This document shows positions 33,872 to 61,747 of a DNA stretch of 64,000 nt, piece after piece. The notes under the pieces were generated by a model that saw nothing but the letters and a program-made list of their open reading frames with translations, was not told where the DNA came from and made no database searches. The stretch is taken from positions 32,440 to 96,439 of IMG/VR virus record IMGVR_UViG_3300021256_000007; one strand, given 5' to 3'. The position numbers and the translations under genes were made by a program. Numbering within the stretch: the stretch's first letter is position 1; the number at the start of each line of letters is the position of its first letter. The DNA is from a virus (lineage: Duplodnaviria; Heunggongvirae; Uroviricota; Caudoviricetes).

Positions 33872-34117
33872 CGTGTGCAATTTCGTGTGCATTTTTATCT
33901 ATTTCGTGTGCAATTTCGGTTTCTTGCATGAAAGATATTCTGTACATACAAGTGGTCAAAAACTGCATGAAATCAAAGAAAAAGCCCCGAACCATTGCGG
34001 CTCAGGGCTTTGGAAATTGGTGGAGATGGGGGGAGTTGAACCCCTATAGAAAAGACCTTCAAATATGCATGAAATCAGGAAAGTTTACTCGTTGTGTGCA
34101 TTTTCGTGTGCAGTTTT
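33872..34117 (+). other. candidate attP region: five direct arm-type repeats (C/T)GTGTGCA(A/T/G)TTT flanking a tRNA 3'-end-like core
   Basis: Repeats at 33872, 33884, 33905, 34093 and 34105, all in the same orientation. They bracket the tRNA-like segment at 34018-34045 and abut the 3' end of the integrase gene. Confidence 0.4.
34018..34045 (-). other. tRNA 3'-end-like fragment (T-arm + acceptor 3' strand + CCA), putative attP core
   Basis: The minus strand reads AGGGGTTCAACTCCCCCCATCTCCACCA: a T-stem/loop, a 7-nt acceptor strand, a discriminator and CCA. No 5' half is present. Confidence 0.4.
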
Positions 34118-35137
34118 GGAGTCTAAAAAGAGCGACTCCATATGAGAGTCGATTAAATCTGAGAACGAATCCTCTTTTTCAATCATCGTGTGCTGGTATA
34201 CTGTCTTCAGCATATTGTCAGTTTTGTGCCCCATACGTTTCATGGCGTATTTATCAGGGACGCCAAGAGAGTGGGCTTCAGATGCTGCGAAATGTCTGAG
34301 ATCATGGAAGCGGCATTGTGTGATATTTGCCTTTTCACAAAGTCGAATAAATCCTTTGTAGATCGCAGCCTGAGTTAGGGAAACTACGTAATCTGAATCG
34401 TGTGGCTGCTGGTCAATAATGGTTTTAATCTCCTTCGGGCATTTAATCCAGCGGTCTCCGGCGAGAGATTTCGTAAGTTTTTCGGCAGGTCCGTCTTCTC
34501 CTTCGACAATTGCACGCTGAATGTGGATTCGGTCACCAATGATATCTGAAAACTTAAGGCCACGAATTTCACTCATACGAAGGCCGAGCCAAGATGCCAA
34601 AACAATCGGAAGGTAATATTTTGTTCCTTCGGCAGTTTGGTAAAGTTTCTTAAGCTCATCTTCGGTAAGAATCGAGATTTCGTGAGGTTCTTTCTGAGGA
34701 AGAGTAGTTCTCAGGACAAAATTTGGACGGTACTCCTTTAAAACTGCACTGAGAAGTCCGTGAGCATTCCTGACAGATTTGCTACTAGCACCGCGTTTAA
34801 AATCAGCATTGATAGCTTTTTGTACCTGTTCCTGCGTGAGATCCGTGATATTTTCCTTCATGAGAGGTTGAAGGTAATTCTTACGGATCTTTTTATAGCC
34901 TCGGATGGTAGCAGGAGAGAGAACACTGTCTTTTACTTCGATATACTGATCGAAAGCTTTTCCGACTGTAAGAGGTATGCGCTTTTCGAACTGAAGGCCT
35001 GCATAAAGTTCTTTCGCTTTCTGCTTGACAACTTTCGGATCAGGATCGGTTATGCTGTACCGTTTGCCGTCAACTGCGATTTGAATCCGCCAATTTCCAG
35101 ATGGTAGTTTCTTTGCCTTTGGTAGTTTCATCGGCAT
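34085..35137 (-). CDS. int: tyrosine site-specific integrase
   Basis: C-terminal R..HxLRH..A......Y motif (RFHDLRHFAASEA...LKTVYQHT). The MPMKLPKAK start has GGAGGA upstream on the minus strand. An upstream in-frame Met at 35254 is also possible. Confidence 0.8.
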   Translation of the reverse strand: MPMKLPKAKKLPSGNWRIQIAVDGKRYSITDPDPKVVKQKAKELYAGLQFEKRIPLTVGKAFDQYIEVKDSVLSPATIRGYKKIRKNYLQPLMKENITDLTQEQVQKAINADFKRGASSKSVRNAHGLLSAVLKEYRPNFVLRTTLPQKEPHEISILTEDELKKLYQTAEGTKYYLPIVLASWLGLRMSEIRGLKFSDIIGDRIHIQRAIVEGEDGPAEKLTKSLAGDRWIKCPKEIKTIIDQQPHDSDYVVSLTQAAIYKGFIRLCEKANITQCRFHDLRHFAASEAHSLGVPDKYAMKRMGHKTDNMLKTVYQHTMIEKEDSFSDLIDSHMESLFLDSKTAHENAHNE

Positions 35138-35210
35138 TCCTCCTTCAAAATGGAAGTATAACACGAAAACGTAAGATTTACAACTAATATAATGAAAGGA
35201 GATGTCAATA

Positions 35211-35444
35211 ATGGATTTTGATTGGACTGATTCGTCATCCGATGAGTTCAGCATACATTTAACAAAACAAGAAGAAGCTTGTTATGCGGCAATGTTCGAG
35301 GATCGTCCACGGTTATTCGAATATCGTGAAAACGAGTATCCTAAATATTGTGCAGATAGCAAGAAAATAATAGCGATGTATGTTGAAGAATTCGGCTTAG
35401 GGAAAGAATCTATCAACAGAATCTTTGAACATTATTTTATGTAA
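35211..35444 (+). CDS. hypothetical acidic protein
   Basis: RBS AAAGGAG. 77 aa. Confidence 0.4.
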   Translation: MDFDWTDSSSDEFSIHLTKQEEACYAAMFEDRPRLFEYRENEYPKYCADSKKIIAMYVEEFGLGKESINRIFEHYFM

Positions 35445-36221: not shown

Positions 36222-36404
36222 TTTCGCATATTTTACAGCGCCTATAGTGAGAGGAGGCGAATGGTCAAGCGGAAAGCTTTATAAATCGGTTATGCAAGGC
36301 CGGGGATGAAAGGGCCCCAACGATCCGTAATAGCTCAATGGTAGAGCGCCGGGAAACCGGAGACGTGGGTTCGAAGCCCACAACTCTCACAGTTTTTATT
36401 TTTT
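36222..36404 (+). ncRNA. promoter-driven short transcript carrying a tRNA-like structure that lacks an acceptor stem and anticodon loop
   Basis: A promoter-like element at 36222-36252 and a T-tract terminator at 36391-36404 bracket it. Internal to it are a canonical D-arm (TAGCTCAATGGTAGAGC), a CCGG-GAAA-CCGG tetraloop hairpin and a T-arm (GTGGGTTCGAAGCCCAC). The 5' GTGAGAG can pair with the 3' CTCTCAC. Confidence 0.35.
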
Positions 36405-44158: not shown

Positions 44159-44192
44159 TTGATATTTGCATTACGAAAGGAGAATTCTGAAT

Positions 44193-45257
44193 ATGTTAGG
44201 AATTATTTTAGCAGTTATCATTCTTATTGCGGGATTCGGAATTACATTCGCCGTCAATAAGGTAAAGCAGGCAGAGTACAACGAAAAGTATGAAGACTGG
44301 GAAAACGCCAAACAGATCGCAGCGGCTCGGTTTCCGAACAACGTATGGAAGAAACCGGAACCGAAGAAGCCCGAGACAATTAAGTTTCCGGTGCTGATTG
44401 CGATTCCGTTGGCCGTGATTATTCTCATCGCAAGCTGTCTGGCTATTGTTCCGACCGGGTATACCGGCATTCTGACAACTTTCGGCAAAGTGGAAAACCG
44501 CACGATTCCGTCCGGTATCAGTTTCATTGCTCCTTGGCAGAATGTCATTAAAATGGATAACCGGACACAGAAAGTTCAGATCCAGACAAGTGCATTTTCC
44601 AGTGATATTCAGCAGGTCGACGTTCAGCTTTCAGTAAACTACTGCATCGATCAGGAAACGGCTCAGGTTCTCTATCGAACAGTTGGTACGAACTATTACG
44701 AAAACATTATGTTCCCGCGTATCCAGGAGAATCTGAAGGCTGTTTTCTCTCAGTATTCGGCTGAAAACCTGATTGCCAAGCGTGACAGCCTCTCGGATTC
44801 CATTGCTTCGGCTACGGCGAACGACATGAAGAACTATGGTATTACCATTGTTTCCATTGCCATCGAGGACATTGATTTCACCGATGCGTTCACCAATGCC
44901 GTTGAAGCCAAGCAGGTAGCAGCACAGAATAAGCTCACGGCTGAAACTCAGCAGGCCCAGAAGACAATGGAGGAAGAAGCCGCTGCCAAACGAGCTGTTA
45001 TTGCTGCGAATGCAGAAGCCGATAAAGCTATTATTGCCGCGAATGCCGATCTCGAAGTTGTAAAGGTTCAGGCTGAAGCTGCTCTCTATGCCGGCGAACG
45101 GGAAGCGGAAATGAATAAGCGTATTTCCGAATCTCTCGGCAACGGCATTATTGATTACTATTGGATCAAGCAGTGGAATGGCGAACTTCCGACTACGATT
45201 CTCGGCGGAGATGCGAACTATATGATCGATCTGACGAAGGGTGATGCTGCGGAATGA
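44193..45257 (+). CDS. SPFH/band-7 (prohibitin/HflK-like) membrane protein
   Basis: N-terminal transmembrane helix, then an SPFH-like core (TGYTGILTTFGKVENRTIPSGISFIAPWQNV...VDVQLSVNY) and a C-terminal A/Q/E coiled coil. Confidence 0.6.
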   Translation: MLGIILAVIILIAGFGITFAVNKVKQAEYNEKYEDWENAKQIAAARFPNNVWKKPEPKKPETIKFPVLIAIPLAVIILIASCLAIVPTGYTGILTTFGKVENRTIPSGISFIAPWQNVIKMDNRTQKVQIQTSAFSSDIQQVDVQLSVNYCIDQETAQVLYRTVGTNYYENIMFPRIQENLKAVFSQYSAENLIAKRDSLSDSIASATANDMKNYGITIVSIAIEDIDFTDAFTNAVEAKQVAAQNKLTAETQQAQKTMEEEAAAKRAVIAANAEADKAIIAANADLEVVKVQAEAALYAGEREAEMNKRISESLGNGIIDYYWIKQWNGELPTTILGGDANYMIDLTKGDAAE

Positions 45258-50711: not shown

Positions 50712-50763
50712 GCATCACGAAAGGAGCTTGTCAGTATTGGCAGGCTCCTTTGCTTTTATATTT

Positions 50764-50848: not shown

Positions 50849-51017
50849 TATCCTGGATCTAATAAGATCATTATGCTAATACAGCATCAAAAAACATAGT
50901 GAAGAATACTGCCCGATGAGTCAGTAAGAAGCTATGGATCAGATTTTGAAGGTTTTGCTGATCGCATTAGAGCGAGGTTAAGGAGTCCAGAGAGGCTCTA
51001 CCTCGTTCTTTATATTT

Positions 51018-51816: not shown

Positions 51817-52038
51817 ATGAAAGGACCGTTTATTGTTAAATTCAAAAACGTATACGGCGGAGAGAAAAATAGCGATATTTATCCTGTGCGAGTTTGGGCT
51901 GATTCTAAAAAAGAAGCAAAAGAATCATTCTTAGCAAGGCAATATGAACCGATGTATCTCGAAGTTGTTTCGGTTGAATTTGATTCGACTTTCGTTATGC
52001 AATTGGTTGAAATGATGAAACGAGAAGAGCTAGCTTAA
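51817..52038 (+). CDS. hypothetical protein
   Basis: 73 aa. Confidence 0.4.
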   Translation: MKGPFIVKFKNVYGGEKNSDIYPVRVWADSKKEAKESFLARQYEPMYLEVVSVEFDSTFVMQLVEMMKREELA

Positions 52039-52072
52039 CAGCGGCTCTTCTTTTATTTTTGTGGAGGTTTCT

Positions 52073-52454: not shown

Positions 52455-52531
52455 GGATCGTTAGCTCAGTCGGTCAGAGCAGTGGTCTCATAAACCTCAG
52501 GTCCGGGGTTCAAGTCCCTGACGGTCCACCA
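52455..52531 (+). tRNA. tRNA with CAT anticodon (Met, or Ile via lysidine)
   Basis: Acceptor GGATCGT/ACGGTCC (one G-U pair). D-arm GCTCAGTCGGTCAGAGC. Anticodon loop CTCATAA. T-arm CGGGGTTCAAGTCCCTG. Ends ACCA. One mismatch in the anticodon stem. Confidence 0.65.
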
Positions 52532-52533
52532 AT

Positions 52534-52758
52534 GCAATATAGTTTATAGGTTCATAGAGTAAGCATGGTTCTGAATGGTAACCCGATAGACATGGCGAAA
52601 GGAACGGAGCGAATACCAGCCAAACTTCGAGGTAGGTGGAGAGCCACTGAAACGCCAGATATTTATACGTGCGGATTCAGTATACAGCAACGGGCCGGAG
52701 CATATGCTTGAAATAGCTATGCGAGTAGATGCGGCGTGGTCCCTATAAACTATATTGC
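52534..52758 (+). ncRNA. 225-nt non-coding element bounded by perfect 17-bp inverted repeats, immediately 3' of the tRNA-Met
   Basis: GCAATATAGTTTATAGG at 52534-52550 and its reverse complement CCTATAAACTATATTGC at 52742-52758. No ORF lies between them. Confidence 0.4.
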
Positions 52759-52792
52759 TTTTATATTTTGATACTGGAAAGGAGACTAGAAA

Positions 52793-53182
52793 ATGCTAAA
52801 CTGCCCAAATTGTGCGGCGCCAATCGAAAGTGATATTTGTCCTTACTGCGGTTCTGTCTTTCTGGATTGGGCGTCATTTGACATGAAAAGGCCAACTTTT
52901 GTTAAGGTATTTGACGAAAATGGAAACCTTAATCTAATGAAGATAAAACCAGTTTCGGTAGGAATTAAGTATGAAAGCGATGATGGATATTTCTATGGTG
53001 ATAATAATAGGATACTTAGTGTCACAACTTCTCCAACGCTAAAAATTGAAGCGGAATTTGAAGCCGTTCCATTTAAACTTAAAACATTAGATAAAGCCTC
53101 TGTCCTTAGACTGCTAATTAAACCAGATGTTGCTGATACAGACACGATTCGAGATATTTTAAAGGAGACTAGAAATGAGTAA
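52793..53182 (+). CDS. hypothetical protein with an N-terminal zinc ribbon
   Basis: CPNCAAPIESDICPYCGS. Confidence 0.45.
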   Translation: MLNCPNCAAPIESDICPYCGSVFLDWASFDMKRPTFVKVFDENGNLNLMKIKPVSVGIKYESDDGYFYGDNNRILSVTTSPTLKIEAEFEAVPFKLKTLDKASVLRLLIKPDVADTDTIRDILKETRNE

Positions 53183-55686: not shown

Positions 55687-56229
55687 ATGAGCCTTAGAAA
55701 CATCTATCTTATTGTCGGTCCATCCGGAAGCGGTAAGACATCCATCGCTAACGAACTGCAAACAACCTACGGATACAAAGCTGTTGAATCTTACACAACA
55801 AGACCTCCTCGCTACGATGGTGAGAGAGGTCATATTTTTGTCTCGGATGAGGAGTTCGACGCTCTCGGCCCCATGTGCGCCTATACCGAGTACAACGGCT
55901 ATCGCTACGGAGTTACCGACGATGTTATCGATTCCCATGATATTTATGTCATTGATCCGTATGGGGTGAAGTATTTAAAGGCGAAGTATAGAGGAAATAA
56001 AGATATTAAGTGTATTCGTCTGGAAGTTAATGAACTTGTTCGCTATCGTCGCATGAAAGACCGTGGAGACAGCAAAGAAATGATCGTAAAACGCCATGCA
56101 CAAGATAAGATCAGTTTCGGAAAAGAAGAATGGTTCATTCAGTACGACATGGTAATTCCAAACAATGATTTCACAAACACAGTCGAAGCGATCTATAGCT
56201 TCATTCAGTGTTGGGAAGGAGAAGGGTGA
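55687..56229 (+). CDS. gmk: guanylate kinase
   Basis: GPSGSGKTS P-loop, TTRPPRYDGERGHIFVSDEEF and YGV(T)DDV, the hallmarks of the guanylate kinase family. Confidence 0.75.
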   Translation: MSLRNIYLIVGPSGSGKTSIANELQTTYGYKAVESYTTRPPRYDGERGHIFVSDEEFDALGPMCAYTEYNGYRYGVTDDVIDSHDIYVIDPYGVKYLKAKYRGNKDIKCIRLEVNELVRYRRMKDRGDSKEMIVKRHAQDKISFGKEEWFIQYDMVIPNNDFTNTVEAIYSFIQCWEGEG

Positions 56230-59544: not shown

Positions 59545-59870
59545 TGCAGCATGTTGTCAATGTAGCTTTTGATTTTGATGACGATCGAGTCAAAAAGATT
59601 CTGGAAGACACTACCGTTGAGAAAGTCCAAAAAGATATTAAGCAAGCGATTATCGACGAAGTATTCGAAAAGAGCGATTGGGGTCGAGGTTCACACGCAA
59701 ACCCAGAAAACGATCCTCTTAGCGCGTGGGTAACCCGCTACATTAAGGAGCTCATCGGAGAATACAAAGAAGACATTATCAAGCAGGCCGGTAAAGAAAT
59801 TGCGCAAAGTATGATGAAGTCCAGTAAATGGAAACAAATGGTTATTGAGGAGACAAAAGCGCATGAGTGA
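59544..59870 (+). CDS. hypothetical protein
   Basis: 108 aa. Confidence 0.4.
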   Translation: MQHVVNVAFDFDDDRVKKILEDTTVEKVQKDIKQAIIDEVFEKSDWGRGSHANPENDPLSAWVTRYIKELIGEYKEDIIKQAGKEIAQSMMKSSKWKQMVIEETKAHE

Positions 59871-60432
59871 TATTTCGGTGAGTCACGGTATTTTGAGCGG
59901 GAATCGGATTCTGGAAGAAGTCGAAAAAGGAACCATCGTCATCGATCCCTTTGACAAAAAGTTTCTGAATCCGAACAGCTACAATCTTCATCTGGCAGAC
60001 GAGCTTCTCACTTATGAGCATGCCATCCTCGATATGAAGAAAGAGGAACCTTACATACTGGAACGTATTCCAACAGGAGGCAAACTTCTGATTCCGGACA
60101 AGTTATATTTGGGCAGAACCATGGAACGAACTTTCACTGATGGATTTGTTCCGATGCTGGAAGGCAGAAGCTCGATCGGACGCCTTGGAATATTTATTCA
60201 CGCAACCGCAGGCTTTGGCGATAACGGTTTTGACGGGTTTTGGACACTGGAGATCTCCTGTGTGCAGCCCGTCATTCTTTATGCCGGCGTGGAGATCGGA
60301 CAGATCTATTACCACACCATTGCCGACAGTAACGGAATGGGAGAAGTAGGCGTTCCGGTACACTATACAAACGGCAAATACCAGAAGAACACCGGAATTC
60401 AACCGAGCATGATCTGGAAGGAATTTCTGTAA
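59863..60432 (+). CDS. dcd: dCTP deaminase family protein
   Basis: GRSSIGRLGIFIHATAGFGDNGFDGFWTLEIS matches the dCTP deaminase/dUTPase-superfamily motif. Confidence 0.7.
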   Translation: MSDISVSHGILSGNRILEEVEKGTIVIDPFDKKFLNPNSYNLHLADELLTYEHAILDMKKEEPYILERIPTGGKLLIPDKLYLGRTMERTFTDGFVPMLEGRSSIGRLGIFIHATAGFGDNGFDGFWTLEISCVQPVILYAGVEIGQIYYHTIADSNGMGEVGVPVHYTNGKYQKNTGIQPSMIWKEFL

Positions 60433-60919: not shown

Positions 60920-61747
60920 ATGATTGGAGCTATTATTGGTGATATTTGTGGTTCTCGTTTTGAAGCTGACAACATTAAGACAAAAGACTTTGAATTGATG
61001 CCGCTAATGAAAGGCTGTAGGTTAACGGATGACAGTATCATGACGATGGCGATTGCGCTCGCAATTCTAGATTGTCATTGGGGAAATGGTACGATCGAAG
61101 AACTCAAAGAGCGCGCCATCTTTCGAATGCAAGAAGGAGGAAGAGGTTATCCGAATGCCGGATACGGTCATCGATTCTACCAGTGGATATTTTCATCTAA
61201 TCCAAAACCTTATAACAGTTATGGAAACGGAGCAGCTATGCGGGTCAGTCCCTGTGGATTTGCGGCGCGAACTCTTCAGGAAGCGATCGAGATGGCGGTT
61301 GCGGTTACGGAAGTCACACACAATCATCCGGAAGCTCTTAAAGCCGCTGAGACAGTAGCAGCTGTGATATTTCTTGCAAGAAGTGGAAAGAGCATGACCG
61401 AACTTAAAGATTATGTAGAGAAACATTATTGCACTCTCAATTTTACGCTTGATGATATTCGTCCGACATATAGATTCGACGTCTCTTGTCAGGGCAGCGT
61501 TCCGGTAGCATTAGAAGCGTTCTTTGAAGCAACGGACTTTGAGGATGCAATTCGTAATGCTATTTCAGTCGGAGGAGACAGTGATACGATTGCTGCGGTT
61601 GTCGGTGGAATGGCTGAAGCAAAATGGGGTGTTCCTCAAGGTATTCGTCATAAAGCCGAATGGTTCCTTAATAAATCTCAAAAAGAACTGATCGAGAAAT
61701 TTGAAAGTCAGGCTTGGACAGATTCTGGTATGGCGCCGCTCTGGTAA
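60920..61747 (+). CDS. ADP-ribosylglycohydrolase (ARH/DraG family)
   Basis: N-terminal GAIIGDICGSRFE and LTDDSIMTMAIA, C-terminal GGDSDTIAAVVGGMAEA. These are the metal-binding motifs of the family. Confidence 0.7.
   Translation: MIGAIIGDICGSRFEADNIKTKDFELMPLMKGCRLTDDSIMTMAIALAILDCHWGNGTIEELKERAIFRMQEGGRGYPNAGYGHRFYQWIFSSNPKPYNSYGNGAAMRVSPCGFAARTLQEAIEMAVAVTEVTHNHPEALKAAETVAAVIFLARSGKSMTELKDYVEKHYCTLNFTLDDIRPTYRFDVSCQGSVPVALEAFFEATDFEDAIRNAISVGGDSDTIAAVVGGMAEAKWGVPQGIRHKAEWFLNKSQKELIEKFESQAWTDSGMAPLW

Follow-up and report, generated by a model that had tools for sequence, protein, structure and literature searches.

A Non-Coding Cassette Closed by a Perfect 17-bp Inverted Repeat next to tRNA-Met in Rumen Phages: A Candidate Small RNA Gene

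Introduction

The tRNA regions of bacteriophage genomes repeatedly house non-coding RNAs, such as the stable RNAs of phage T4, the GOLLD and ROOL RNAs and the theta ribozymes. In the 64-kb stretch of phage DNA analysed here (the window), a gap directly after a tRNA-Met(CAT) gene is bounded by a long perfect inverted repeat, and the question that this locus raises is what such a repeat closes. The original prediction had left several answers side by side: a structured regulatory RNA, a miniature mobile element (MITE), the remnant of a self-splicing or endonuclease-associated element, or a processing signal for the adjacent tRNA. Neither an invertible DNA switch nor the terminator-like tail was among them.

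The window is part of a 96-kb ENA contig, and an identical stretch is present in the Logan assembly SRR873596 of a sheep-rumen metagenome. Judging by its tail genes, its integrase and its capsid-protease fusion, the genome looks like that of a temperate siphovirus; among 50,697 deposited phages no close relative of it was found.

Results

The Closing Repeat and the Content of the Cassette

The perfect 17-bp repeat was confirmed in both position and sequence. Its arms, GCAATATAGTTTATAGG and the exact reverse complement, are separated by 191 nt and close a non-coding cassette of 225 bases (Table 1). All pairs of the stem are Watson–Crick and AU-rich (29% GC), and the stem begins 2 nt past the encoded CCA of the tRNA, which was called by both ARAGORN and Rfam. 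A repeat search stretches the pair to 20 nt with 95% complementarity and one mismatch (52531–52550/52742–52761). No other perfect inverted repeat of at least 17 bp with a spacer of 20–400 is present in the window, and the arm 17-mer has no copies there beyond these two arms. When 64-kb sequences were simulated 100 times with a first-order Markov model, the longest such repeat was 16 bp, obtained once, and 17 bp never occurred; the inverted repeat is far beyond chance.

Table 1. Features of the locus in window positions, with the numbers of variable alignment columns among six variants
Feature	Position	Strand	Basis or conservation	Variable columns
tRNA-Met(CAT) with encoded CCA, upstream neighbour	52455–52531	+	ARAGORN; Rfam tRNA, 65.4 bits	
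2-nt spacer from CCA to stem (AT, GC or GT)	52532–52533	+	Alignments	2/2
5′ arm of the closing stem	52534–52550	+	Invariant in 6 variants from 14 assemblies	0/34 (both arms)
Interior, 191 nt, non-coding, 49% GC, moderately constrained	52551–52741	+	GC content, broken ORF, column counts	19/191
3′ arm of the inverted repeat	52742–52758	+	Invariant in all copies	0/34 (both arms)
U-rich tail TTTTATATTTT directly past the stem	52759–52769	+	Invariant in all copies	0/10
Ribosome-binding linker GATACTGGAAAGGAGACTAGAAA of the next gene	52770–52792	+	Conserved; also at the empty sites of L008 and L009	
Adjacent 63-aa gene, third-codon positions				15/63
Adjacent 63-aa gene, first and second positions				4/126

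The arms had been said to enclose some 190 nt without any ORF. The stretch is indeed non-coding, although a single ORF of 48 aa with an ATG start (52565–52711) is present in it. This ORF carries two in-frame stops in L024, the commonest variant, and is frameshifted in the variants L020 and L021; a search of 5.8 billion proteins with a chimeric six-frame translation gave no match at a cutoff as loose as E ≤ 10. On both counts the element is non-coding.

Variable columns were counted across the six variants and compared by Fisher test with those of the adjacent 63-aa gene (Table 1). The interior varies less than the third-codon positions (p = 0.009), and so does the stem (p = 0.0009), while the comparison of the stem with the interior gave p = 0.09; the stem is at least as constrained as the interior. 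The two spacer nucleotides are the only fully variable positions of the tRNA/stem junction. For the interior, the counts are consistent either with moderate purifying selection or with an age younger than that of the flanks, that is, with recent acquisition.

Copies, Relatives and Empty Sites

Copies of the element were gathered via the flanking proteins and by one metagenome scan with degenerate patterns. The element was found in 13 further contigs, which together with the window represent 14 ruminant-gut assemblies and 6 distinct sequences (alignment A5) that are 94–100% identical. The order is the same in every copy: the 63-aa gene, tRNA-Met, the element and the conserved ribosome-binding linker. 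The gene past the linker varies and encodes a 129-aa Zn-ribbon protein, a protein beginning with MHPLAF or a 53-aa ORF product; the element is therefore tied to the tRNA side and not to one regulated gene.

Relatives without the element define its limits. Filled sites read CCACCA-(AT/GC/GT)-[element]-TTTTATATTTTGA, and the sequences at empty sites are CCACCATGATATTTTGA and CCACCAAATTATATTTGA. In L009, TGATATTTTGATACTAGAAAGGAG comes straight after the same tRNA-Met; L008 has this arrangement after a tRNA-Ile, and in L072 and L073 the empty sites read CCACCAAATTATATTTGAAAGGAG. These clean empty sites identify the cassette (about 52532–52762) as a discrete insertion or deletion, and the linker, being present at empty sites too, lies outside the insertion.

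Searches further afield returned no diverged homologue. At the loci of distant relatives, blastn, nhmmer and the covariance model R1 found terminator-like hairpins only, and analogous repeat-bounded modules near the tRNAs of related phages were not found. Matches among the INPHARED phages (in near and distant modes) and the PLSDB plasmids were confined to tRNAs. In IMG/VR neither a 24-mer of the interior nor six degenerate patterns of the pseudo-ORF had a match, and the protein of the downstream gene had no relative there.

Several observations bear on a possible mosaicism of the surrounding DNA. The tRNA-Met of L020 (865–941) is only about 80% identical to that of the window, while the elements are 97% identical; the differences in the D-arm and the anticodon stem point to mosaicism, or to replacement of the tRNA, beside an element that stayed conserved. 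Different genes are preceded by nearly the same ribosome-binding linker, TTTTGATACTRGAAAGGAGACTAGAAA, at 52770–52792 and 53153–53175 of the window and in L008, L009, L020 and L021. Gene order is shuffled among the relatives: in L008 a 130-aa gene precedes the 63-aa gene, and some relatives have a 123-aa gene that others lack. Shared linkers together with shuffled gene order suggest recombination at the linkers. L008 also possesses a perfect 16-bp inverted repeat (592–607/923–938) around a 97-aa ORF, with a third copy of the arm at 514–528.

RNA Folding and Known RNA Families

Of the proposal that the repeat is the closing stem of a structured RNA, the discrete non-coding element with invariant arms was borne out, and a structured interior gained no support from folding. 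The fold of the whole element (−69.7 kcal/mol) has a z-score of −2.9 because of the closing stem; the interior alone, with z = −0.04, is no stabler than its shuffles. The closing stem is present in the minimum-free-energy fold of every variant and is the sole constant part. The RNAalifold folds of the interior differ between 3 and 6 sequences, and the single-sequence folds also differ between variants. Compared with the window fold, the other variants showed 7 pairs that were one-sided compatible, 3 that were disrupted and 0 that were compensatory, which is not significant, and copies at least 94% identical are too alike to reveal covariation. A GAAA loop is changed to GAGA and several C-to-U changes retain G–U pairs, which is within chance.

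The suggested search of known RNA families likewise gave nothing over the element. A gathering-threshold Rfam scan of the whole window returned tRNAs only, and with Rfam 15 at a permissive E ≤ 10 neither the window nor any of three variant loci had a match over 52532–52769. The families without a match include riboswitches, T-box, 6S, Y RNA, tmRNA, RNase P, ROOL/GOLLD, ribozymes and group I and II introns; a remnant of a self-splicing or endonuclease-associated element accordingly went undetected in these searches. Relaxed ARAGORN settings revealed no tRNA-like fold in the interior.

Three more specific candidates were considered and dropped. The interior contains GGUGG and three UGGU motifs reminiscent of a T-box, which was rejected on account of the wrong topology and the lack of a T-box match in Rfam. 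By a hand count, GGA motifs of the CsrA type are not enriched (about 5 observed versus about 5 expected). A retron non-coding RNA (msr-msd) is closed by a1/a2 inverted repeats and accompanied by a reverse-transcriptase gene next to it; an inverted repeat is present here, but no RVT domain was found in the 109 ORFs of the window, and the downstream gene encodes the Zn-ribbon protein. Domains for RNA binding, RNA processing, reverse transcription or DNA inversion were found neither in the neighbouring nor in the other ORFs of the window.

The Terminator-Like Tail

The last two bases of the 3′ arm are GC, and TTTTATATTT comes next, so that the stem directly precedes the U-tract UUUUAUAUUUU. The last two stem bases and the tail together form the 12-mer GCTTTTATATTT (52757–52768). 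The same 12-mer is found at 50752–50763, after a canonical 14-bp terminator hairpin (50720–50751) just upstream of tRNA-Leu, and related motifs follow hairpins at about 52019–52060 and about 50968–51017. L072 has a hairpin followed by TTTATATTTG at 1138–1189, immediately upstream of tRNA-Leu, and this hairpin is the best non-self match of model R1, a weak one. Throughout the phage group GCTTTTATATTT or TTTATATTTG recurs right after hairpins and directly before the starts of tRNAs or genes, a pattern that resembles a tail for termination or processing shared by the group.

By this shared tail the closing stem resembles the terminators of this phage, save for the conserved 191-nt "loop". As in an intrinsic terminator, a stable stem stands directly before a U-tract; the G+C-rich stem and the loop of 3–8 nt that are typical of such terminators are replaced here by a stem of 29% GC and a loop of 191 nt. 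The 17-bp stem was not called in a terminator scan, and no outward-facing sigma-70 promoter was found in the 3′ arm.

In the same tRNA-rich region a 170-nt non-coding spacer on the + strand (50849–51017), between tRNA-Leu(TAA) and tRNA-Gln(TTG), has a z-score of −2.75 versus shuffles and ends in a hairpin with TTCTTTATATTTTGA. The spacer may represent a further small RNA, or else act as a terminator module.

Discussion

For this discrete non-coding insertion, with its invariant stem, constrained interior, terminator-type tail and no match to a known RNA family, the best reading in our view, put forward tentatively, is a stable non-coding RNA that is co-transcribed with tRNA-Met and has its ends set by tRNA processing and by the closing stem with its U-tract. 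The cassette (about 52532–52769) would then be a lineage-specific gene for an RNA of ~225–235 nt in a clade of temperate rumen siphophages. Transcribed from the + strand jointly with tRNA-Met, the RNA would have its 5′ end released 0–2 nt before the stem by the 3′ maturation of the tRNA (tRNA punctuation); of the roles originally considered, a link to the processing of the adjacent tRNA is plausible in this form. The 3′ end would be provided by the closing stem and UUUUAUAUUUU, resembling that left by an intrinsic terminator, or alternatively by an RNase III cut in the roughly two-turn helix, which would span about 20 positions when the flanking A–U or G–U pairs and one mismatch are included. 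With both ends locked in a long helix the RNA may be protected from exonucleases, and its function would reside in the conserved 191-nt interior. The transcription, processing and stability of this RNA, and any function in trans, we infer from the architecture and conservation of the locus.

The invariance of the stem (0/34) beside a freely varying 2-nt spacer favours the small RNA, as do the GC content of the interior, which rises above the local background (about 31–37%) and approaches that of the three tRNAs (55–57%), the location of the element on the strand of all neighbouring genes, and its site in a tRNA-rich early region. The existence of relatives without the element (L008, L009, L072/L073) counts against it, and so does the combination of an AU-rich stem with a 191-nt "loop", which makes a non-canonical terminator.

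A more far-reaching version, in which the cassette is the first known representative of a new phage RNA family, its helix doubles as a terminator and tRNA punctuation frees the RNA, seems rather doubtful to us. The interior could in that case be a new ribozyme, a decoy for a protein or defence system, or a domain that senses a ligand and thereby adjusts read-through into the early genes. Within the reach of our searches the candidate new RNA family is limited to one clade of rumen phages. If the helix does serve both as terminator and as end protection, it would represent an unusual and reusable design for stable RNAs; if it does not, the element would be an ordinary lineage-specific spacer of limited interest.

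Precedents for small stable RNAs encoded within a phage tRNA cluster are the "species 1/2" RNAs of T4 (rnaC/rnaD). They are similar to the proposed RNA in being non-coding, 100–250 nt long, co-transcribed with tRNAs and freed by tRNA processing, these last two being proposed here for the element. The two are unrelated in sequence, the T4 RNAs are partly tRNA-like whereas the element has no tRNA-like fold, and the T4 RNAs are not known to have a perfect stem of 17 bp that joins their two ends and leads into a terminator tail. Stems cleaved by RNase III flank stable RNAs in rRNA operons, in the scRNA precursor of B. subtilis and in the early RNA of T7. There too a helix of about two turns is formed by the 5′ and 3′ flanks, and it excises the RNA from a polycistronic transcript, a role that is proposed for our element, whose stem differs in being fully Watson–Crick, AU-rich and followed by a U-tract as at an intrinsic terminator. 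ROOL RNAs were first found in rumen metagenomes, and GOLLD and ROOL are structured RNAs that often lie next to tRNA genes. They share with the element their nature as non-coding RNAs of phages and prophages and the proximity to tRNA genes; they are, however, 500–800 nt long and show strong covariation, and neither family matches the element. The cassette thus sits among the tRNA-cluster-associated non-coding RNAs of phages, and its end architecture is unusual.

The stem and its tail may instead act in cis, as a terminator or attenuator that insulates the downstream genes from the tRNA unit by cutting read-through, which we consider unlikely. The interior would then merely join the arms or, in the manner of a riboswitch, sense a signal on which formation of the stem depends. 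That a canonical terminator of this region has exactly the same tail, GCTTTTATATTT, and that other short transcription units nearby end in a hairpin with a U-tract, agrees well with a cis-acting role, as do the invariance of stem and tail and the cross-match of model R1 to the L072 hairpin with its similar tail. A terminator, however, would leave the conserved GC-rich interior of 191 nt unexplained, the ordinary terminators of this phage having loops of 4–6 nt, and the genes to be insulated vary among the copies. An attenuator is further at odds with the perfect 17-bp stem, which would form whatever the ligand, and a riboswitch-like function with the absence of any riboswitch or leader family match, even at E ≤ 10.

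The clean presence/absence pattern, with the linker standing straight after the tRNA in L009, L008 and L072/L073, would also be expected if a MITE-like or other non-autonomous mobile element had inserted a single time in the gap from the tRNA to the next gene and were now inherited vertically as a relic. Perfect terminal inverted repeats and a GC content unlike that of the surrounding phage DNA point the same way, yet we regard such a relic as improbable. The element occurs as one copy per genome and always at the same site (14 metagenomic copies), and no direct repeat that could be a target-site duplication is present at the junctions. Of the hallmarks of a MITE the terminal inverted repeats are thus present, while the target-site duplication is absent and no dispersed copies turned up in the window, IMG/VR or the GTDB genomes. 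Further copies of the repeat, which the original prediction had expected of a MITE, amounted to isolated chance matches: the arm 17-mer is found at 5 IMG/VR loci and at 31 loci in 185,579 GTDB species genomes, each time as a single arm with unrelated flanks and without similarity to the interior, in numbers that fit the chance expectation. Paired copies were found in none of IMG/VR, GTDB, INPHARED and PLSDB, the window encodes no transposase, and the interior evolves slower than the neighbouring third-codon positions. Occurrence as a single copy at one site, without a duplication, does not support a MITE, although foreign DNA may have been inserted here on one occasion.

The nearest parallel among mobile elements is provided by the Correia elements, MITEs of Neisseria, whose repeats form an RNase III-sensitive hairpin when transcribed. 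Like the cassette they are non-coding, 100–230 bp long and bounded by perfect or near-perfect inverted repeats. They differ in having hundreds of copies and TA duplications, whereas our element is single-copy, lacks a duplication and is absent from the 185,579 genomes.

Inverted repeats of this size also bound DNA segments that are flipped by site-specific recombinases, as in the cwpV and flgB switches of C. difficile and the polysaccharide promoters of Bacteroides. Inversion of the 191-bp segment might in this way alter transcription into the downstream genes, and the anatomy of the locus fits the known switches, in which a segment of about 150–300 bp with inverted repeats of 15–30 bp lies directly upstream of a gene; the repeats are, moreover, more conserved than the interior. 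We nevertheless find it highly improbable that the cassette is such a switch, since all 13 full-length copies (13/13, from independent assemblies) have one orientation relative to the 63-aa gene, and the sole recombinase among the 109 ORFs of the window, a tyrosine integrase (34085–35254), is encoded 17 kb away, so that no invertase is near, although an enzyme of the host might act in its place. A weak promoter-like TTGCTG-N17-TATAAA can be read from the sequence on the minus strand of the interior, but it is not convincing: the putative −35 box is TTACTG in 5 of the 6 variants, the −10 box lies in the most indel-prone stretch, and 49% GC is atypical of a promoter segment. A general description of invertible switches is available (PMC13501310).

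Theta ribozymes, which are minimal HDV-like motifs, adjoin the tRNAs of gut phages, with tRNA-Met among their commonest partners, and these partner tRNAs mostly lack an encoded CCA, only 4.5% encoding it (PMC10879173). A permissive HDV-like descriptor (a nested double pseudoknot of P1, P1.1, P2 and P3 with the catalytic C in J4/2) was for that reason run here. That the cassette is a self-cleaving ribozyme, whether theta or of another class, which trims the 3′ trailer of the tRNA, is barely credible: theta ribozymes do lie within ±5 nt of tRNA 3′ ends in gut Caudoviricetes and the element, equally non-coding, starts a few nucleotides from such an end, but it is about 225 nt long instead of a minimal double pseudoknot, follows an encoded CCA, matches no ribozyme family in Rfam 15 at E ≤ 10, has its first 17 nt committed to a long-range stem that conflicts with the P1/P2 order of an HDV-like fold, and yielded to the descriptor no fold with a cleavage site at the tRNA end, the single match being at chance level and cutting inside the acceptor stem.

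Among the non-coding elements of phage tRNA regions the cassette represents a compact and cleanly bounded example, and its natural presence/absence alleles offer a ready-made genetic comparison. Because matched rumen metagenomes (SRR873595–602) and metatranscriptomes (SRR873450–SRR873457) from the same sheep exist (PMC4158751), its expression, RNA ends and inversion are directly testable.

Some features elsewhere in the window were also recorded. A tRNA-like piece at 36320–36385 on the + strand (Rfam tRNA, 34.8 bits, model positions 8–63) retains the D and T arms; in place of the anticodon arm it has a 4-bp stem capped by a GAAA tetraloop, and acceptor pairing is absent. Given its distance of about 1 kb from the integrase gene, which is on the minus strand, it may be attP or a tRNA remnant. 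The ORFs of the window include three BspA-type leucine-rich-repeat proteins, an SPFH/Band-7 protein (44166–45257), a guanylate-kinase-like protein (55687–56229), a dCTP-deaminase-like protein (59845–60432) and an ADP-ribosylglycohydrolase (60920–61747).
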